Source: a virus
Reading direction: 5' to 3' (one strand)
Virus genome (UHGV): UHGV-1603728
DNA length: 18,018 nt
The first letter of the stretch is position 1. The number at the start of each line of letters is the position of its first letter. The position numbers and the translations under genes are program-made. Positions 4,154 to 16,202 of the stretch are shown here, piece by piece. The notes beneath the pieces were generated by a model, which had not been told where the DNA came from, did not search any database, and was given only the letters and a program-made list of their open reading frames with translations.

Positions 4154-4515
4154 TTCAACTCCTCCCGACGACGTTCCTGAAGCTCTAGCATTGCGGCTCG
4201 GAAATCCTGCCACCATTCCTCATCTGCAACGGGGGTGTTTCGCTCCAGCACCTTGTCCGCATCAGCGATCAGGTTTGCCAGACTATTGTCTGAAATCTTC
4301 GTTACCGGAGTCGTTGGTTGCTCAACCTGCCCGATAGGTTTTATCGTGCTCAAAAGGAGGCGACGGCGGGAAAGTGGTGCCCCACAACGACGGTCATCTT
4401 CCTTGCGATATGTTTCTTTCGGACCAACACACCAGGTTGTCGGCGTTTCACGCAACTTCACTCTTTTCTCACCATCATTGGTAATGATTATTCCGGTATG
4501 GGTTTTGATGCTCAT
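4150..4515 (-). CDS. Hypothetical protein (121 aa)
   Basis: ORF with SD GAGGGG upstream; its ATG overlaps the upstream stop (ATGA). Confidence 0.45.
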   Translation of the reverse strand: MSIKTHTGIIITNDGEKRVKLRETPTTWCVGPKETYRKEDDRRCGAPLSRRRLLLSTIKPIGQVEQPTTPVTKISDNSLANLIADADKVLERNTPVADEEWWQDFRAAMLELQERRREELK

Positions 4516-4793
4516 GCCACAGCCCCTCTCAACGGCTTAACTTTGGCTAATAAGGTGTTAAACAACATGGAGTTAGGATTCATGCCAAATGGCAATTCCG
4601 GTTTAGCGGAGTAGTACAGGCAACCATTTATTTTCCTGGTTGTTATCTGTCCTTCGGCAACCATGCTTCTCAGTCTGCAACGCATAGAGTTCTGCGACAC
4701 ACCAATGTGCTCCGCGATTACGTCCACTTTTGAACATGGGTGATCGGTCAGGAAATTAATCACATCTTGGGGGTTAATAATTTTGCGTTTCAT
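4512..4793 (-). CDS. Small winged-helix-like DNA-binding protein
   Basis: Start trimmed to MKRKIINPQ (ATG 4793, SD AAGGA upstream). The segment VDVIAEHIGVSQNSMRCRLRSMVAEGQI looks like a wHTH. An iteron cluster sits directly upstream. Confidence 0.5.
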   Translation of the reverse strand: MKRKIINPQDVINFLTDHPCSKVDVIAEHIGVSQNSMRCRLRSMVAEGQITTRKINGCLYYSAKPELPFGMNPNSMLFNTLLAKVKPLRGAVA

Positions 4794-4807: not shown

Positions 4808-4840
4808 TATACATTTATATAAATATATAATTCTATATAC
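4808..4840. promoter_or_regulatory. AT-rich iteron cluster S1 (TATAGATTT / TATATAA-type units) upstream of the wHTH gene
   Basis: tatacatttatataaatatataattctatatac matches the iteron family that flanks parA/parG. A 7-bp hairpin follows at 4841-4858. Confidence 0.4.
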
Positions 4841-4870
4841 GGCGGGAGACATCCCGCCGTAGGCTTACTG

Positions 4871-5938
4871 TCAGGCTTTCAATAGCGATTCTTTCAGATA
4901 TCGGGCATCAGCCAGGGCGTTTGGAGTAATCTTGCGAACCCATGCATTACGGGTTGGACTCCACTTAAAGGCGCGTGATTTAAGCAGCGAACGAATGTTT
5001 GCCTCTGGTTTGCCAGGGAAATAAAACAGGATGCGGTTATCCTCTGGATCTATCTCCATAGAAAAGCCGTCGTATTCTTCGCGCTGTGCTCCTGTTACAG
5101 ACTTGACCGATTCAAGCTCCTTAATACGGCTCTGTAGTCGTTTGATTTCGGCGTTATTGTTGCTCAGTACGTATGAAGGGAATCCGATGCGCCCACAGAA
5201 ATCTCCGGCCAGTAACTCTTTGGCTTCGCTTTCTGTAAACCTGAGATCGATTAATGCAGAAAGCTGCTGTAATTGGTCTTTTTTGTATTTGCGAATAGCC
5301 TTATTTGCGGCCTTCATTTTGACGTGTGACTTCATGCAGCCTTGCAGCTTACGAAGCAACTTAAATAGCGCATCAGGATCATCAGACGAAATTCCATTAC
5401 GACCAACACCTGCGGCTTTGCTCTCGTAGTGTGATGCTTTACTTTCGCATTCAACAAACGCTTTTCTTAATAACGCATCAGCTTTAGACAAACGGCGGCG
5501 ATGGCCTTTCGCGCTATAATGGTCAACTAAAATCGGCTGGCCTAACGGGATCACATCCAACAGGTCATGCGCTCGCTTATGCGCTACCGCACCTTCTTTT
5601 CTGGCTTTTTCTGCACGAGCAATATATCGGGCAAGACGCGCGTTCTGGCGTTCCTGATAGGTGTTTACGTAATCATCTCCGCGCTGCTGCTGTTCAAGCC
5701 ATGCTTTGCGCAGATCTTCTGTTACGTCCACCAGCTCCGCAGGGATACAACCAGTTTGGGCTTCATAAGAGTAACCATCCTCATAGATACGCCCATCATC
5801 TTCAACAAAGAAAAAGGTTTCGTGCTCATCGCTTTTGACCATACGACCATTAACATGGCGTAATAGGTAGCCAGTATCAGTGCTTAACAGGCTGTTAGGG
5901 TTGTTGATCCAGTCAGAAATAATTACTTGTTTATTCAT
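4871..5938 (-). CDS. Hypothetical protein, 355 aa (possibly DUF3560-like)
   Basis: Long ORF with SD GGAG 7 nt upstream. It sits directly downstream of the 102-bp promoter/leader repeat and the iteron palindrome. Confidence 0.55.
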   Translation of the reverse strand: MNKQVIISDWINNPNSLLSTDTGYLLRHVNGRMVKSDEHETFFFVEDDGRIYEDGYSYEAQTGCIPAELVDVTEDLRKAWLEQQQRGDDYVNTYQERQNARLARYIARAEKARKEGAVAHKRAHDLLDVIPLGQPILVDHYSAKGHRRRLSKADALLRKAFVECESKASHYESKAAGVGRNGISSDDPDALFKLLRKLQGCMKSHVKMKAANKAIRKYKKDQLQQLSALIDLRFTESEAKELLAGDFCGRIGFPSYVLSNNNAEIKRLQSRIKELESVKSVTGAQREEYDGFSMEIDPEDNRILFYFPGKPEANIRSLLKSRAFKWSPTRNAWVRKITPNALADARYLKESLLKA

Positions 5939-5944
5939 CAGATT

Positions 5945-6046
5945 TCTCCGGTTTAACCAGGGCGGGTATCGCTCGGTTTCGGGTATAACCTTAGGAAATT
6001 TTTTCCCACCTGTAAAGCGCTTTTTATATAAATCTATAATTATATA
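5945..6046 (-). repeat. Copy A of a 101/102-bp promoter-leader repeat (about 97% identical to 16048-16148)
   Basis: Near-identical to copy B, with 2 substitutions and 1 indel. Contains a TTTACA -35-like box, a conserved roughly 50-nt leader, and GGAG before the ATG. Confidence 0.75.
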
Positions 6047-6056
6047 TTTATAGATT
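6021..6056. promoter_or_regulatory. Iteron palindrome S2 (AAATCTATAATTA-N-TATTTATAGATTT) upstream of the -35 box
   Basis: Inverted 10-bp arms AAATCTATAA / TTATAGATTT. Same units as the iterons around parA/parG. Confidence 0.5.
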
Positions 6057-6107
6057 TTCGATATTCCCGATGTCTATACACCATCAAAACAGCTCAAAAT
6101 GACACTT

Positions 6108-8477: not shown

Positions 8478-8513
8478 ACCACGATATGTGGTATTAAAAC
8501 CACATATCGTGAG
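8478..8513. promoter_or_regulatory. Operators O1 (ACCACgatatGTGGT) and O2 (ACCACatatcGTGag), forming a 13-bp-arm inverted repeat
   Basis: 8479-8491 and 8500-8512 are reverse complements at 12 of 13 positions. They overlap the putative leftward promoter (-35 TTGAAA at 8521..8516, -10 TTTAAT at 8498..8493). Confidence 0.5.
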
Positions 8514-8580: not shown

Positions 8581-8595
8581 ACCACTAAATGTGGT
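8581..8595. promoter_or_regulatory. Operator O3 (ACCACtaaatGTGGT) upstream of the CI-like gene
   Basis: Perfect half-site palindrome of the same family, about 40 bp upstream of the CI-like start. Confidence 0.5.
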
Positions 8596-8632: not shown

Positions 8633-9289
8633 ATGAAAAGCAACGACGAGAACATCAAGAAAGAAATAGGTCTGCGCATTCAGACTCTACGGAAACAATC
8701 CGGCATGACTGCCGGAGATCTCCAGCAAGTCACTGGAATAGGCTTAAGCACCTTGCAGAACTATGAGGCCGGATTAAGACAACCATCTATACCTGCCATC
8801 AAGAAAATCGCGCACGCCCTGAAAGCATCAGCGCCTTATATCGCGTGCTTAACAGATAACCCGTTCCCACCCCAGAATACTAACGCTCCTGTTATTCCTG
8901 GGCTTGTAGCTATAAAAAATGACATAGCATCGCACGCCGGAGAAAAGCCAGTGCTGGCGATAGAACAGGAGATTCTACGAAGCAAGAACATCAACCCATC
9001 GTCTCTGTCAGTTCTCCAGAGCAACGATGAGTTAATGTCACCAACAATATCCCCAGGCTCCCAAGTCCTGATTAATACAGACGATACAGAGATTCATGAG
9101 GGGATCTATGCCCTTGAAGACAGAAATGGCCTGGTTGTTTTGAGGCACTGTAGAGTCATACCGGGTGACAATGCTGTTATGCTGTCAACCGAAAGGGATG
9201 CTGAAATGAACACTAAGCATCTGAATAACGAGGAATTTAAGCGTTATAAAGTTCTGGGCCGCGTAGTTAGTGTTGTCAACTGGTTATGA
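8633..9289 (+). CDS. CI-like repressor: N-terminal XRE HTH plus C-terminal S24 (LexA-like) peptidase-fold domain
   Basis: HTH segment LRKQSGMTAGDLQQVTGIGLSTLQNYEAG. The C-terminus (ELMSPT ... NGLVVLRHCRV ... GRVVSVVNWL) parallels the LexA/CI C-terminal domain. Confidence 0.7.
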   Translation: MKSNDENIKKEIGLRIQTLRKQSGMTAGDLQQVTGIGLSTLQNYEAGLRQPSIPAIKKIAHALKASAPYIACLTDNPFPPQNTNAPVIPGLVAIKNDIASHAGEKPVLAIEQEILRSKNINPSSLSVLQSNDELMSPTISPGSQVLINTDDTEIHEGIYALEDRNGLVVLRHCRVIPGDNAVMLSTERDAEMNTKHLNNEEFKRYKVLGRVVSVVNWL

Positions 9290-9331: not shown

Positions 9332-9346
9332 ACCACGCTTTGTGGT
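9332..9346. promoter_or_regulatory. Operator O4 (ACCACgctttGTGGT) upstream of the 124-aa gene
   Basis: Same ACCAC-N5-GTGGT family; TTGACA follows immediately at 9348-9353. Confidence 0.45.
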
Positions 9347-9381: not shown

Positions 9382-9756
9382 ATGGAATTACATACAGCCA
9401 ATAAAAACGAAACTCTGATCACTGCTGGAATCGAAATCCAAGCGTTGAACATAGCGATTGAGTGTATGTTATGCCAAATCATTGATAATGAGAAAGATAT
9501 CGACTGGATAGAATCTATCCTTCATCTGGCATCAGAACAAAAAGTCTGCCTCAAAACGGCCTTACAATACGATGTGCCAGCGGTATCGAAGCTGTGCCAG
9601 CCATTGATGGCATATAACAGGGCTATTATTTCTGTATGCCTCATGATTCTCGATGAAAACACCCCTCTTAGCGACCGCTCAGAAGCTGCTCTAACCCTCT
9701 CACGTAAACAGCGACAGCTAGCAAATCAACTGATATCAACGATAGCTGACCTCTGA
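9382..9756 (+). CDS. Hypothetical protein (124 aa)
   Basis: ORF with SD AGAGG 6 nt upstream, followed by an 8-bp hairpin at 9759-9780. Confidence 0.45.
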   Translation: MELHTANKNETLITAGIEIQALNIAIECMLCQIIDNEKDIDWIESILHLASEQKVCLKTALQYDVPAVSKLCQPLMAYNRAIISVCLMILDENTPLSDRSEAALTLSRKQRQLANQLISTIADL

Positions 9757-9782
9757 CTGCAAGCGGGCTAACGCCCGCTTAT

Positions 9783-9882
9783 ATGATTATAGATTTATAT
9801 AATTATATAAAACGCTTTTCATCAGCCAAAAAGTTGGTTATGCTTACCTCGTTCTATAAATATAGATTTATAGAATTATATA
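9783..9882. promoter_or_regulatory. Iteron clusters S3 and S4 upstream of parA (centromere/operator-like)
   Basis: ttatagatttatataattatataa (9787-9810) and ctataaatatagatttatagaattatataa (9854-9882), made of TATAGATTT and TATATAA units in both orientations. Confidence 0.5.
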
Positions 9883-9906
9883 ACCAAACACATGGAGTCT
9901 CGACAA

Positions 9907-10560
9907 ATGACTATCTCTGTAGGTATTTTCAACGGAAAAGGCGGCGTAACCAAATCAACAATTGCCCGTGCTTTAGCAGTTGCTTATGCAAAGGCCGGCT
10001 GGAATGTATGCCTGATCGATATGGATGTGCTTAACGGAACGGTAACGCGTTGGGTACAACGCAGAATGGCCAACAATATCGAACCTGCAATCGCGGCGCA
10101 GCCGTGCGGCACACCATCACAAGTCCAGAAAATCATCGAATCAGAAGTATACGACCTGGTTATCGTCGATGGCGGTGCCTACGCATCTGAATCAGTACCG
10201 AAGCTCTCTGAATTTCTGGATATGGTTATTTTGCCAACCAGATTCTCTACCGATGACCTGGAAACCACCGTTAACACAGCTCATGGCATCGTTAAAAAGG
10301 GTGTGCCAATCAAGAAAATTTGCATGGTGTTCTCAGGCGCGGCTGAAAACGAAGCCGACTACATTGAAGCCCAAGAGTACCTGGCTAATACGCCATACTT
10401 TGTTGTCGATAAGTACATTCCCCACAAGCCAGCTCTGAGCAAAGCTCAGGATAAGGGCTTAAGCCTCATTGAGTGCTCATACGTTGCGCCACGCAAAAAG
10501 GCAGACGACGTTATTCAGGGGATTATCAACCAGCTTGAGGCTCTGACTACTGCCGCGTAA
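9907..10560 (+). CDS. ParA/ParF-family partition ATPase (small ParA with deviant Walker A)
   Basis: Deviant Walker A KGGVTKST near the N-terminus, about 218 aa, no N-terminal HTH. SD GGAG upstream of ATG 9907. Confidence 0.8.
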   Translation: MTISVGIFNGKGGVTKSTIARALAVAYAKAGWNVCLIDMDVLNGTVTRWVQRRMANNIEPAIAAQPCGTPSQVQKIIESEVYDLVIVDGGAYASESVPKLSEFLDMVILPTRFSTDDLETTVNTAHGIVKKGVPIKKICMVFSGAAENEADYIEAQEYLANTPYFVVDKYIPHKPALSKAQDKGLSLIECSYVAPRKKADDVIQGIINQLEALTTAA

Positions 10561-10591
10561 TATATAATTATAGTTTTATAGATTTATATAA
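10559..10591. promoter_or_regulatory. Iteron cluster S5 between parA and the ParG-like gene
   Basis: tatataattatagttttatagatttatataa, the same unit family as S2-S4. Confidence 0.45.
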
Positions 10592-10603
10592 GAGGGGATA
10601 CAC

Positions 10604-10852
10604 ATGGCCGCACCATCAAAACCACCAAAGAAGAACAGCAAAGGCGTACCGCCATCGATCGAACAACCGCAGGTTTTCGACCCGACTGAAACGCCAACCA
10701 GAACCAAATCAGGTGGGGCACAAATGGCGTTTAACGTCGACCCTGAATTTAAACGTGAGTACAAAACATTCGCCAGCTCAATGGATATGTCATTGAAAGA
10801 AGTGCTGACAAAATCTTTTGAGTTACTCAAGGCTCAATACAACCAGAAGTAA
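10604..10852 (+). CDS. ParG-like ribbon-helix-helix centromere-binding protein
   Basis: 82 aa, directly downstream of the ParA-like gene. The C-terminus AFNVDPEFKREYKTFASSMDMSLKEVLTKSFELLK follows the RHH pattern of ParG (VNFDEEKHTRFKAACARKGTSITDVVNQLV). SD AGAGGGG upstream. Confidence 0.6.
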   Translation: MAAPSKPPKKNSKGVPPSIEQPQVFDPTETPTRTKSGGAQMAFNVDPEFKREYKTFASSMDMSLKEVLTKSFELLKAQYNQK

Positions 10853-11074: not shown

Positions 11075-11098
11075 AAAAAAAGGCCCCCGAAGGGGCCT
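11075..11098 (-). terminator. Intrinsic terminator (7-bp GC stem, CGAA loop), effective mainly on the minus strand
   Basis: AGGCCCC-cgaa-GGGGCCU with a run of 7 T on the minus strand, directly downstream of the small hydrophobic ORF. Confidence 0.6.
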
Positions 11099-11103
11099 AA
11101 TCG

Positions 11104-11226
11104 CTACTTGCTGCTAATGTTTATCGTCACATTCAGAGCGTTATCAGTAATCTTCCAACCCTCCCCATGTGGCGTAAACAAAGCTCCAGTAACAACGATA
11201 AAAATACACATGTAGTATTTTTTCAT
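11104..11226 (-). CDS. Small hydrophobic peptide (40 aa), candidate type I toxin
   Basis: MKKYYMCIFIVVTGALFTPHGEGWKITDNALNVTINISSK has one N-terminal hydrophobic helix. It is followed by a terminator and preceded by a long 5' leader containing a 20-nt box complementary to a divergent RNA. Confidence 0.35.
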   Translation of the reverse strand: MKKYYMCIFIVVTGALFTPHGEGWKITDNALNVTINISSK

Positions 11227-11290
11227 TGTGTGGCCCTTACAGGCCGTTTCACGGCATCCCCACCGACGAAAATGTCGCGAGAGCAAGCAC

Positions 11291-11310
11291 GCTGTTTGTG
11301 CCTGCGTGGT
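11291..11310. repeat. 20-nt box copy 1 (GCTGTTTGTGCCTGCGTGGT), in the putative leader of the small-peptide mRNA
   Basis: Identical at 19 of 20 positions to 11541-11560. Confidence 0.6.
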
Positions 11311-11498
11311 ACGGCAAGTGGATAATCCTTTCCTGAAAGTCAGTGCCCGGGTGCGAATCGGCGGAAAGGCCCCAAGCCATATTACACGTCATACCCTTCA
11401 TAATGAAGGAATAAAAAACGCTTTTATTACATAAGATTACACGTAAATAAGTTAAAAACCTTCATTTTGCATGAGCTAATGAGCTAAATTTTTTTATA

Positions 11499-12335: not shown

Positions 12336-12350
12336 CCCACACTATGTGGT
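12336..12350. promoter_or_regulatory. Operator O5 (cCCACactatGTGGT) between the HTH gene and the antirepressor operon
   Basis: Same ACCAC-N5-GTGGT family as the sites around the CI-like gene. TTGACA lies at 12375-12380. Confidence 0.4.
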
Positions 12351-12513
12351 TTAGTCTGTTAAAATCCCTCTGTATTGACATGAATGCGCCATTGGTGGAC
12401 ACTTTCCGAGCCGTAGCAAAATCTACGGTCGGGATTAGCCTCCTGAATAACACGATGGCGCATACCGCGTTAGCGGTTTTTTTTATGCGTAGAGCACTGT
12501 TACGCCCAAATTA

Positions 12514-12592
12514 TGGTGGGTCGTACAGGGGCGGAGAAATCCGCGCCGGTTCGTCATTGTGTCCGGTAAGGCTAACCCTGTACGGCTCACCA
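12514..12592 (+). ncRNA. Structured RNA element resembling phage P1 c4 antisense RNA
   Basis: 17-bp closing stem (12514-12530 with 12576-12592) enclosing a GAAA-tetraloop hairpin (12531-12544) and a hairpin with a 13-nt loop (12546-12566). Loop sequences are complementary to flanking target boxes and to the start codon of the downstream small ORF. Confidence 0.4.
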
Positions 12593-12646
12593 CCATTTGA
12601 TTAGCCTCGAATGGCGGTGATAGTTCCATATACTGGAGATATCACA

Positions 12647-12838
12647 ATGACAAACCTACCCCATGACTATTACGTCAACCTCGTAAAGATCCTTCTCAAG
12701 AAAGCCTCATACGCCGATAAATTCCGCCTGGCTGAAATCATCGAGCGCGAAGCTATGCGCATCGCCAGCAACGATAACGCTGTTTCTGACGCAAAAATCT
12801 CCCTCGTAACCAAAGTAGTTATGGGAGGTGCAAAATGA
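12647..12838 (+). CDS. Small protein translationally coupled to the antirepressor (icd-like position)
   Basis: ATG 12647 with SD GGAG 8 nt upstream; its stop overlaps the antirepressor ATG (ATGA). An alternative ATG at 12611 has no SD. Confidence 0.45.
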   Translation: MTNLPHDYYVNLVKILLKKASYADKFRLAEIIEREAMRIASNDNAVSDAKISLVTKVVMGGAK

Positions 12839-14016
12839 AAACGCTTCCGACCGTTAACACCCTACAGCCTATCCTGCATAACCAAATCCCCGTTATCACT
12901 ACTGAACTACTGGCAAAGCTATACGGCACAGACGTTGATAACATCAAAAAAAATTACTCACGTAACGCAAACCGCTTTATTGAAGGAAAGCATTTTTTCA
13001 AAGTGGCTGGCGATGAGTTAAAAACTTTGCGAGTGACTTTAAGTCACTCACAAAATTTGCGACTGGTTTTAAACGAGTCACAAAATGAGGTGCAAATTTC
13101 CCCCAAAACTCGCTCTCTCATCCTCTGGACAGAACGCGGGGCTGCACGTCACGCCAAAATGCTTGAAACTAACCAAGCGTGGGATGTGTTCGAACGGCTG
13201 GAAGACTGCTACTTCAACCAGAACGCGCAAACGGCCGCGACCGTTACCGTCTCGCCAAACAATGCTCGTGAGGTTGTCGATACGCTCAACGCCAAACCGA
13301 TGTTTTACATTAAAGTGTGCAACAACGAGCCACTCACAACCTCAGCCGATGTTGCCCAGGCATTCAGCACCACAAACAATTCCATCGTTATGGCCATCGA
13401 TGCGCTACGCATTCCTCGCACGGCTGCGGCGCGTCACTTCTTTAAAGAGCAACGACCGCTGGAAGGAAGCGACCGCGAAATAACAATCTATCGCATGACA
13501 AAAGACGGATTTACCTTACTCATGGAGAGCATCGACGGTCCAAGCGTGAAAGATATCAAGCTGGCCTACATTGAAGCCTTTAACGCTATCAGCAGCGTGT
13601 TAAAAACACAGTACGAGCGTGATCTGGCTAAACGACTGTACCAGGAAAAAACGATTATCCGCGCGGCAACAGAGCATAATCGGCTATTAACGGAACCGAA
13701 CTACAGGAAGGAACTAATCAAGGAGTTTGACAAGGCAACAGGGAAAACCAAAGCGGCGCTAAATCTGCCAGCAATGACTCAGGAAAATGTGATATCAGCC
13801 TTACTTCTTGATCTGCTCAGAAACGCCAGAGCACTGATCAGCTTTGACGAAAACCTGAATCCTCAGCTCAAGCTACTACCACCGACAGGCAAAGTAGTCG
13901 ACCAGGCAGATCACAACAGCATACTCAGCGTACTGGATGCAAACCTACCAGCCAGGACACTACAGGAACTGATAAAGATATCGGCGGATAAACTGGCCGC
14001 AGGTGCAAAACCATAA
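12835..14016 (+). CDS. Phage antirepressor (ORF6N/KilA-type N-terminal region with Rha-like central domain)
   Basis: N-terminus PVITTELLAKLYGTDVDNIKKNYSRNANRFIEGKHFF is ORF6N-like; the centre PLTTSADVAQAFSTTNNSIVMAIDAL is Rha/Ant-like. 393 aa, SD GGAGG 6 nt upstream. Confidence 0.75.
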   Translation: MKTLPTVNTLQPILHNQIPVITTELLAKLYGTDVDNIKKNYSRNANRFIEGKHFFKVAGDELKTLRVTLSHSQNLRLVLNESQNEVQISPKTRSLILWTERGAARHAKMLETNQAWDVFERLEDCYFNQNAQTAATVTVSPNNAREVVDTLNAKPMFYIKVCNNEPLTTSADVAQAFSTTNNSIVMAIDALRIPRTAAARHFFKEQRPLEGSDREITIYRMTKDGFTLLMESIDGPSVKDIKLAYIEAFNAISSVLKTQYERDLAKRLYQEKTIIRAATEHNRLLTEPNYRKELIKEFDKATGKTKAALNLPAMTQENVISALLLDLLRNARALISFDENLNPQLKLLPPTGKVVDQADHNSILSVLDANLPARTLQELIKISADKLAAGAKP

Positions 14017-15321: not shown

Positions 15322-15594
15322 TCATTTGATCCCTTGTTCCAATTCTGACGACACTTTAACCTTTTCCCATACAAGGGTTTGCAGCCTTAACAGAATCGCA
15401 TCTTTATCAAGGTGTGAAAGATCCTTAACCATATCGTCAAACGACAGAACGCGAATGGCCATCTCAATGACCCTCGGCGGCTCCCCCTTCTCATATCGCT
15501 TATATGTAGCCAACGATATCCCAAATTCTTCGGCGGCTCGCTCCTGCGTCCAGTTCATCCCTCGACGCCATAATTTCAATTCATAACCCGTCAT
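15322..15594 (-). CDS. XRE-family HTH protein (90 aa)
   Basis: Start trimmed to MTGYELKLWRRGMNWTQERAAEEFGISLATYKRYEKG (ATG 15594) with SD GAGGAGG upstream. Confidence 0.6.
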   Translation of the reverse strand: MTGYELKLWRRGMNWTQERAAEEFGISLATYKRYEKGEPPRVIEMAIRVLSFDDMVKDLSHLDKDAILLRLQTLVWEKVKVSSELEQGIK

Positions 15595-15622
15595 AGCATC
15601 CTCCTCGCACAATATTAACACT

Positions 15623-15649
15623 CGCAAAGTGTCAAAATGACACTTTGCG
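15623..15649. promoter_or_regulatory. 27-bp perfect palindrome CGCAAAGTGTCA-AAA-TGACACTTTGCG (operator-like)
   Basis: 12-bp perfect inverted arms; contains TTGACA on the minus strand. Lies between the 126-aa gene and the HTH gene. Confidence 0.55.
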
Positions 15650-15659
15650 CACATCGTGT

Positions 15660-16040
15660 TTACTTAACGAGGAATAAAAATGGTTTATTGTTCGGCGGTG
15701 TAATCGGGGCTGGCTCGCTTTTGCTCATGCGATCAGTGTACCAGGCCAGCTCCTTGTCAAAGTAAGCCTGATTAAAATAGGCAATGAATGTAGTTTCAAA
15801 TCCATAACGACCGCTAATACGCAGCATCTGGTTGCCGTTCTCTGTTTCCAGATATACCTGGGCACGTTCCTGATTCTCCTTCAGCCAGGTTAAAGCCTCA
15901 TCGCACGAGGACACACGATACTCATCATCGTAGCCGTCATCGATGCGGCTTGAAGAAGAACGGCAAATCACGCCAACAGAACCAGCCAGGATAGTTTGAA
16001 TTTTAAGGAAAGCGTTTTTGCGGATTTTAATCATGCTCAT
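15660..16040 (-). CDS. Hypothetical protein (126 aa)
   Basis: ORF directly downstream of copy B of the promoter/leader repeat, with SD GGAG upstream. Confidence 0.5.
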   Translation of the reverse strand: MSMIKIRKNAFLKIQTILAGSVGVICRSSSSRIDDGYDDEYRVSSCDEALTWLKENQERAQVYLETENGNQMLRISGRYGFETTFIAYFNQAYFDKELAWYTDRMSKSEPAPITPPNNKPFLFLVK

Positions 16041-16047
16041 CGGGTTA

Positions 16048-16148
16048 TCTCCGGTTTAACCAGGGCGGGTATCGCTCGGTTTCGGGTATAACCATAGGAA
16101 ATTTTTTCCCACCTGTAAAGCACTTTTATATAAATCTATAATTATATA
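16048..16148 (-). repeat. Copy B of the 101/102-bp promoter-leader repeat, ending in a half iteron (S6)
   Basis: About 97% identical to 5945-6046. It carries only the left half of the S2 palindrome. Confidence 0.75.
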
Positions 16149-16161
16149 ATTCAATGAGAAC

Positions 16162-16187
16162 AAAAAAGCCCCTTTGCAACAGGGGCT
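16162..16187 (-). terminator. Rho-independent terminator after the HigA-like gene
   Basis: 7-bp stem AGCCCCU / AGGGGCU with loop of 7 nt, followed on the minus strand by a run of 5-6 T. Confidence 0.6.
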
Positions 16188-16202
16188 TATCATTCGTTTT
16201 GA

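Follow-up and report, generated by a model that had tools for sequence, protein, structure and literature searches.

We analyzed an 18,018-nucleotide stretch of the virus genome UHGV-1603728 (hereafter, the window), which sequence comparison identifies as part of a ~48-kb Escherichia coli myovirus-type phage-plasmid, and found that short arrays of TATA boxes with an 8-bp period surround its partition genes and recur at three distant sites. The partition genes are parA and a downstream gene for an 82-aa protein, which is probably a ribbon-helix-helix (RHH) protein. We consider it probable that this RHH protein binds all of the arrays and modulates the promoters at the distal ones. An initial annotation had proposed that one par-associated protein, plausibly the RHH protein, serves both the par and the distal arrays, and this proposal is supported by the covariation of arrays and proteins among related elements described below.

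The repeat unit consists of a TATA tetramer and a 4-bp AT-rich spacer (GATT, TAAT, TAAA, GAAT or GTTT), which gives the 8-bp period. The window contains six such arrays, three around parA and the RHH gene and three distal, and three or more TATA boxes in a row, spaced by exactly 8 bp, were found in six places only (Table 1); none appeared in 500 dinucleotide-preserving shuffles of the window (mean 0.0, maximum 0). Within the arrays, self-identity was maximal at offsets of 8 (0.68) and 16 (0.64), with values of 0.46–0.57 at the remaining even offsets and 0.22–0.35 at odd offsets. Moreover, the exact word TATAGATTT has six copies in the window, and every copy lies inside the described clusters. 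These counts bear out the claim of the initial annotation that the same repeat units lie around parA and the RHH gene and at three distant sites. It had also considered that similar strings might be equally frequent in other AT-rich DNA; arrays were present in 6 of the 15 window segments with at least 80% A+T and in 8 of the 70 such segments of the complete related plasmid NZ_CP020518.1, where this survey detected no array in the 18–45 kb structural-gene block. Other AT-rich DNA of the element does not share the array frequency of these sites. Single words are a poorer guide. The 16-mer TTATAGATTTATATAA matched at least 120 stretches in viral contigs, mostly as lone matches in unrelated AT-rich contigs. 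What is diagnostic is the clustering of several copies inside one element, not the word as such. Among the stretches listed, the sole contig with three copies was IMGVR_UViG_2541047812_000002 (L054; 5344 bp), which may be a partial sequence from this phage-plasmid family.

By the criteria that can be tested in sequence, the partition module is of type Ib: its ParA is small and has no N-terminal helix-turn-helix (HTH) domain, a small gene adjoins it downstream, and arrays lie at the par promoter. The ParA protein (217–222 aa) matched the Pfam families CbiA (E = 1.7e-12, residues 12–191), MipZ (5e-09) and also AAA_31, and the Pfam search returned no HTH family match for it; its counterpart in NZ_CP020518.1 is annotated as ParA family. 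The pairing of parA with a downstream gene for a small protein is kept in 10 related loci, one of which is a conjugative plasmid. Par array 1 directly follows a GC-rich hairpin and lies 4 nt upstream of the putative –35 hexamer of the par promoter (Ppar), par array 2 lies between the –10 hexamer and the ribosome-binding site of parA, and par array 3 occupies the gap between the two genes.

The 82-aa protein has a Lys/Pro-rich flexible tail (residues 1–40) followed by a probable RHH-type C-terminal domain, whose elements are a strand at about 40–46 and helices at 47–59 and 64–80. An AlphaFold2 model computed with a 48-sequence alignment had predicted local distance difference test scores of 92–97 over residues 41–80, with the helices following an extended QMAFNVD segment, and low confidence in the tail (residues 1–40). 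The protein itself had no match in Pfam or in the PDB, and structure searches with the AlphaFold2 monomer model returned no structural match. At E ≤ 1e-3, an exhaustive HMMER search yielded 62 homologues, mostly 74–90 aa in length. In an alignment of the query with 47 small homologues (alignment A2, 48 rows), 17 of the 48 rows matched RHH_10 (best E = 8.8e-06) and 10 matched Antitox_RHH; no match to the Pfam family ParG (PF09274) was obtained for the query or any of the 48 sequences. A profile of the family of the 82-aa protein matched ParG (1p94) weakly (E = 0.58) over the strand-helix region, and hhalign against ParG of plasmid TP228 gave a probability of 53% (E = 1.4e-4, 42 columns), with a ParG sequence that agrees with the 1p94 residues in the profile match. 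The label 'ParG-like' used in the initial annotation is thus apt for the architecture, a tail plus a probable RHH domain, and for the site grammar, but it does not extend to the Pfam family, and on sequence the protein is not a demonstrable ParG-family member.

Two of the distal arrays lie 9–10 bp upstream of TTTACA-17-TA(A/T)GGT promoters, one (p355) ahead of a 355-aa DUF3560 gene and the other (p126) ahead of a 126-aa gene. The TTTACA boxes adjoining these arrays had been pointed out in the initial annotation and are present at both genes, as is the 10-bp-arm palindrome that it described before the 355-aa gene (AAATCTATAA/TTATAGATTT; arms at 6030–6039 and 6048–6057); the p355 array consists of two inverted half-arrays with a shared central TATATA. 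With the –35 hexamer placed at –35 to –30, the boxes of both arrays are centred near –46, –54 and –62. The conserved leader of p355 (~50 nt) includes a small hairpin and a GGAG ribosome-binding site, and the p126 leader (~50 nt) is near-identical to it up to the start codon, beyond which the coding sequences are unrelated. Ppar, p355 and p126 can be aligned over the array and the core promoter. A promoter scan with a threshold of 9/12 consensus matches found only p126; Ppar and p355, with 8/12, fall below this threshold, and their calls therefore rest on the alignment with p126 and on conservation in relatives. Array, weak sigma-70 promoter and conserved leader together make up a portable cassette, whose promoter-plus-leader part was found at 187 places in 62 plasmid records, three places in nearly every record listed. 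In NZ_CP020518.1, the third copy (46565–46672) and a fifth distal array (47787–47814) are situated outside the window.

The remaining distal array of the window precedes a MarR-like winged-helix (wHTH) gene, the first in a run of small leftward accessory genes. This array runs directly into AAGGACGCCTCGACAATG, which resembles the parA leader, and the site as a whole looks like par array 2 joined to the parA leader (CCTCGACAATG). The open reading frame (ORF) extends to an ATG at 4814 inside the array, but the start is most likely the ATG at 4793, which is preceded by AAGGA and gives a 93-aa product, as annotated by the Prokaryotic Genome Annotation Pipeline in a relative. With this start, 15 nt separate the array from the start codon downstream of it, and the two do not overlap. 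All distal arrays are found where transcription units begin, in many cases shortly behind a terminator, and the genes behind them belong to the early/accessory region and not to the late region, as the initial annotation had supposed. A GC-rich hairpin stands directly ahead of three of the six arrays (9763–9778, 4841–4860 and 16166–16188) with the array as its T-rich tail, so that each cassette looks insulated from upstream read-through.

We then compared the window with loci encoding diverged RHH homologues, namely eight phage-plasmid loci (38–89% identity) and the conjugative plasmid L011 (Table 2). All nine related loci share the layout of array, promoter, array, parA and RHH gene, and all have arrays with an 8-bp period, the box sequence differing among loci. 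When distal recurrence was scored with 8-mers from the par intergenic region of each locus itself, the box type of the par promoter recurred at 1–6 distal intergenic sites in 7/8 phage-plasmid loci (shuffle means for distal clusters ≤0.07 in the loci that were shuffled). Only L006 departs from this: on this 4.7-kb contig, the one additional array is situated in the parA–RHH interval. Queries with TATA-type and TTTA-type boxes gave no cross-matches between these two main classes. In the Serratia plasmid L003, for example, TTTAAATA-type arrays are found at the par promoter and at four distal intergenic sites. Moreover, the core promoter and leader of the cassette are conserved among E. coli, Salmonella, Serratia and the metagenome locus L009, with the array swapped to the local par type: the promoter reads TTTACAGGTGGGAAAAAATTTCC-TAAGGT in the window, TTTACAGGTAGGAAAGAATTTCC-TAGTAT in L009 and TTGCAGAGTAGGAAAAAAAGTCC-TATTCT in Serratia, each with the local array type ahead, and the leader ends in ...AAACCGGAGA in both the window and Serratia.

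In L011, AACGA-type 8-bp arrays flank the par promoter of the parA–RHH pair on a conjugative plasmid without phage genes, and its gene table holds no MarR/HTH family match and no gene in the 124-aa-type slot upstream of parA. Because arrays accompany parA and the RHH gene on this phage-gene-free plasmid, we argue that they belong to the par module. The alternating β-strand residues of the RHH proteins, which presumably face the DNA, also differ with the box class: TATA boxes go with Q-M-(A/S)-F-N-V, TTTA boxes with x-N-F-N-V, TACA/TGTA boxes with L-T-F-N-I and CGTTATT boxes with L-N-F-T-V. Taken together, the comparisons tie the arrays to the parA–RHH module and indicate that a match with this module is maintained at the distal arrays.

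Table 1. Coordinates of the arrays, promoters and genes in the window
Feature	Coordinates	Strand	Details
GC-rich hairpin ahead of par array 1	9763-9778		
Par array 1	9780-9811	+	four TATA boxes at 9780, 9788, 9796, 9804; 8-bp spacing
Putative par promoter (Ppar)	9816-9844	+	TTTTCA-17-TATGCT; 8/12 consensus matches; aligns with p355 and p126 core promoters
Par array 2	9851-9884	+	inverted box GTTCTATA, then direct boxes at 9861, 9869, 9877
parA, small type Ib Walker ATPase	9907-10560	+	ORF opens at 9892; probable start 9907, after GGAG
Par array 3	10561-10592	+	four boxes at 10561, 10569, 10577, 10585; fills 43-bp gap between parA stop and RHH start
Gene for 82-aa RHH protein	10604-10852	+	putative centromere/operator-binding protein
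Distal array p355	6022-6057	-	boxes at 6027, 6035, 6041/6043, 6049
p355 core promoter and leader	5939-6016	-	-35 TTTACA 6016-6011, 17-nt spacer, -10 TAAGGT 5993-5988
355-aa DUF3560 gene	4871-5938	-	first gene under p355; Pfam DUF3560 E=7.8e-31; phrog_6744
Distal array p126	16124-16152	-	boxes at 16129, 16137, 16145; sequence equals one half of p355 array
p126 core promoter and leader	16041-16119	-	TTTACA-17-TATGGT; promoter 16119-16091, -35 at 16119-16114
Intrinsic terminator of upstream HigBA operon	16188-16166	-	just upstream of p126 array
126-aa gene	15660-16040	-	phrog_8090
110-aa HTH_3 gene	15322-15654	-	after 126-aa gene
Distal array ahead of wHTH gene	4808-4840	-	boxes at 4808, 4816, 4824, 4834; after hairpin 4841-4860
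MarR-like wHTH gene	4512-4793	-	phrog_1687 E=5e-32; weak HTH_24
Copies of TATAGATTT	6049, 9788, 9861, 10577	+	
Copies of TATAGATTT	6030, 16132	-	
Runs of at least three TATA boxes	4808-4837, 6027-6046, 9780-9807, 9861-9880, 10561-10588, 16129-16148		exactly 8-bp spacing
cI-like repressor gene	8633-9289	+	
124-aa gene upstream of parA	9382-9756		

Table 2. Box types at the par promoters of the related loci
Locus	Source	RHH identity	Par box	Distal sites
L004	Salmonella plasmid	89%	TATA	5
L005	metagenome phage-plasmid	48%	TACA/TGTA	2
L006	metagenome contig, 4.7 kb	46-47%	TTTA	0
L008	metagenome phage-plasmid	46%	TTTA	5-6
L009	metagenome phage-plasmid	38%	TTTA	2
L012	metagenome phage-plasmid	43%	CTTTAA	1
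L134	GC-richer phage-plasmid	41%	CGTTATT	2
L003	Serratia plasmid	40%	TTTA	4
L011	conjugative plasmid	44%	AACGA	none outside par region

We propose that RHH dimers would bind the TATA boxes, one dimer per box, and coat the 3–4-box arrays cooperatively, in the manner of ParG on its ACTC boxes (PMC3130281). At par, the three arrays that bracket the promoter and fill the parA–RHH gap would constitute the centromere and an autoregulatory operator, the arrays on both sides of Ppar giving tight autoregulation and forming the partition complex. Where one upstream array abuts the –35 hexamer, as at the distal promoters, it would let the RHH protein modulate the transcription of accessory units, so that accessory-gene expression would be tied to the level of the partition protein; these arrays may additionally act as weak centromere-like loading sites. 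Repression by occlusion of the –35/UP-element region would be the most likely mode of action at the distal promoters. Activation is kept as an alternative mode because the position of the arrays is also that of class I activator sites and the –10 hexamers are poor.

Several observations weigh against this proposal. The promoters are weak by consensus (8/12 for Ppar and p355, with poor –10 hexamers). The array that the initial annotation noted before the wHTH gene is indeed there, but besides the more likely start at 4793, no recognisable –35/–10 pair was found at this array (4808–4840). The distal arrays lie upstream of –35, where an activator or an UP element also sits, so that either sign of regulation would fit. 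Moreover, the correlation between strand residues and boxes is based on ten elements (the window and nine related loci), and whole elements diverge together, so that another co-varying DNA-binding protein would produce the same pattern, an objection against which L011 speaks.

Since the distal arrays share the box grammar of the par-proximal arrays, they might mainly be extra centromere-like loading sites that spread partition complexes, with incidental effects on promoters. Separate centromere sites are known from phage N15, which has four such inverted repeats (PMC7205306), and the promoter-overlapping arrays of plasmid pSM19035 are themselves parS sites (PMC9499535). However, the distal arrays contain only 3–4 boxes, compared with about eight for efficient activity of TP228 parH (PMC3130281), and omega, the partition protein of pSM19035, needs at least four contiguous repeats to fully activate ParA (PMC9499535); a mainly centromeric role is less likely because 3–4 boxes fall short of what full function needs in these two systems. 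The fixed distance to a conserved –35 hexamer (at two arrays in the window and three per plasmid) and the location at 5΄ ends of transcription units, often after terminators, also speak against it, and we regard this explanation, which is compatible with regulation, as unlikely.

We give still less credence to the idea that the arrays serve another binder (the MarR-like or the 124-aa protein of the element, or a host nucleoid protein such as H-NS, Fis or IHF) or are plain AT-rich UP elements. They are almost pure A+T at –40 to –65, the position of an UP element, and the poor –10 hexamers could need such help; however, the strict 8-bp period and the GC-containing boxes of L011 (AACGA) and L134 (CGTTATT) would be unexpected for UP elements or H-NS, most AT-rich segments have no array, and L011 combines arrays and a parA–RHH pair with a gene table lacking any MarR/HTH match or a gene in the 124-aa-type slot. 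Least probable of all, and in our view very much so, is that the distal arrays are passive passengers of a par promoter region that was duplicated as a convenient promoter cassette. The alignment of Ppar, p355 and p126 over array and core promoter, the likeness of the wHTH site to par array 2 and the parA leader, and the presence of the cassette three times per plasmid (62 records) fit such a duplication, and it does explain the origin of the cassette. However, it does not explain the concerted replacement of arrays on a conserved cassette: diverged relatives keep the promoter and leader and have the array replaced by the local par type, and this repeated replacement implies selection for a match to the cognate protein. 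An array copied passively would still be bound, provided that its boxes are recognised by the protein.

At both the centromere and the operator of TP228, ParG occupies tetramer boxes (ACTC) that are set apart by AT-rich spacers of 4 bp, each box taking one dimer (PMC3130281). Like the TP228 ParF-ParG-parH system, the module described here comprises a small ParA-type ATPase and then a small protein with a flexible N-terminal tail, as well as tetramer boxes with 4-bp AT-rich spacers and an 8-bp period, in direct and inverted orientation, upstream of the operon. The two differ in the box (TATA here, ACTC in TP228), in the marginal sequence similarity to ParG, and in the distribution of the arrays, which here form three short clusters bracketing the promoter and filling the parA–RHH gap, with extra arrays at distant promoters of which none is described for TP228 in PMC3130281.

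The closest functional precedent is omega, the RHH ParB of pSM19035. The initial annotation had presented the coupling of a plasmid partition regulator to phage accessory-gene promoters as non-standard, but omega, a partition adaptor and global regulator in one protein, binds six parS arrays that overlap the copS, delta and omega promoters (PMC9499535). As in that system, short-repeat arrays lie at the promoters of several operons: cognate-type arrays adjoin the non-par promoters p355 and p126, the upstream region of the wHTH gene and two more sites on the full plasmid. Unlike the present element, pSM19035 is an inc18 Firmicute plasmid and not a phage, its sites contain 7–10 heptads of 7 bp (WATCACW), and its targets are plasmid-maintenance genes, compared with phage accessory genes here. 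Omega was not among the solved structures retrieved with the family profile.

N15 resembles our element as a phage-plasmid with partition sites scattered over the genome, in its case the four inverted repeat sites IR1-4 (PMC7205306). It differs in that its system is of type Ia, its ParB (SopB) is a large HTH protein, its sites are single 16-bp palindromes, and its replicon and phage type are different. Some of the N15 sites reportedly lie near phage promoters and affect expression, as is said to have been described by Ravin and Lane in 1999 and by Grigoriev and Lobocka in 2001. The N15 Sop system and KorB of the IncP plasmid RK2 are further partition proteins that regulate several promoters; KorB, a partition ParB homologue, has about a dozen dispersed operators and co-regulates many operons. 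Unlike the RHH protein, KorB is an HTH ParB that recognises 13-bp palindromic operators, acts at a distance and belongs to a conjugative plasmid. No published description of the present partition-array system was found in the literature searched.

The window matched ~60 plasmids of 44–52 kb at 97–98% identity, from E. coli, Escherichia albertii, E. fergusonii and Salmonella, as well as three Yersinia phage records. Its best complete relative, NZ_CP020518.1 (locus L002; 48,175 bp), carries contractile-tail, head, terminase and lysis genes and a cI-like repressor on the phage side, and an IncFII-type repA, a HigBA-type toxin-antitoxin pair and a ParA gene on the plasmid side; from this combination of phage and plasmid genes we conclude that the element is a phage-plasmid. 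The RHH gene is present in 63 PLSDB plasmid records, for example NZ_CP009073.1 (48,488 bp), from E. coli ATCC 25922. Membership in the pSLy3 group of phage-plasmids was rejected: this group is SSU5-related (PMC7969092), in contrast to the ~48-kb contractile-tail element with an IncFII-type RepA considered here. We also rejected an identity of the arrays with RepA iterons or other origin elements, as they are scattered ahead of genes, at the 5΄ ends, and accompany the parA–RHH pair, and repA is situated past the end of the window, as seen in NZ_CP020518.1.

A second palindrome, ACCAC-N5-GTGGT, is unrelated to the TATA arrays and has four copies in the window (8478–8492, 8581–8595, 9332–9346 and 12336–12350), compared with 0.26 expected. 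They lie where the cI-like repressor and the early genes diverge, ahead of the 124-aa gene, and ahead of the isrK/C4 RNAs, and are probably, to judge from sequence, candidate operators of the cI-like prophage repressor that are separate from the TATA arrays. The cI-like repressor was rejected as the binder of the arrays, since this candidate palindrome of its own marks the immunity-region promoters. Matches at the Rfam gathering level were obtained in the window for isrK (12410–12483, +) and C4 antisense RNA (12509–12597, +), which are followed by a 75-aa ORF and a 393-aa ORF (12611–14016); in related plasmids, genes at the equivalent place are annotated as antirepressor, Rha or ORF6N. The layout of isrK, C4 and ORFs (12410–14016) resembles the immI module of P1/P7 (c4-icd-ant). 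Just downstream of the par module, a full-length Rfam match to ryfA RNA was found (11076–11374, –; 135 bits, E = 5e-35).

Some features of the cassette and the outer arrays are recorded here in their own right. The ~50-nt cassette leader (5939–5987 and 16041–16090 in the window, 46565–46620 in L002, and the copies in L003 and L004) is conserved from E. coli to Serratia. Its hairpin shows compensatory changes (AACC/GGUU versus GGCC/GGCC), with double changes at 4/7 pairs among nine sequences; the z-score of the fold was –3.35 for the p126 copy and only –1.1 for the p355 copy. The promoter spacer of the cassette carries a conserved palindrome, GGAAA-AAA-TTTCC. In NZ_CP020518.1, the array at 47787–47814 lies ~150 nt upstream of a tRNA-like sequence (47570–47650), ahead of an MT-A70 methyltransferase gene; the anticodon loop of this sequence, read by eye, is CTCATAA, hence the anticodon CAU.

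The principle of a partition protein acting at several promoters is already known, and the novelty is in the setting, that is, a family of enterobacterial phage-plasmids in which phage accessory genes would be the targets. The portable cassette is likewise new, as is the concerted switch of box type throughout the family. Coupling between plasmid lifestyle and phage programme is known in few phage-plasmids, mainly N15. If the regulation by the RHH protein is true, it would couple the two in a simple way that can be tested, in an E. coli element that is common, and would extend the principle of omega and pSM19035 to Gram-negative phage-plasmids. The arrays also have value for annotation, as they mark promoters and boundaries of transcription units that are currently unreported by pipelines. 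In addition, the box-type switches (TATA, TTTA, TACA/TGTA, CGTTATT and AACGA), together with the accompanying β-strand changes, provide a natural series for the study of DNA recognition by RHH proteins, which could show a concerted change of specificity across a dispersed set of operators.

A broader proposition, which we advance tentatively and rate at slightly under an even prospect, is that the type Ib RHH partition protein serves an entire family of enterobacterial phage-plasmids as a second regulatory circuit, one that does not depend on the prophage repressor and in which a portable cassette (array, weak promoter and structured leader) is placed before unrelated accessory genes and ~8 arrays are replaced in concert when the partition specificity changes. 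If such a family-wide circuit exists, partition specificity, incompatibility and the control of accessory genes would evolve as one unit, and the phage would be informed of plasmid state or copy number through the expression of accessory genes.

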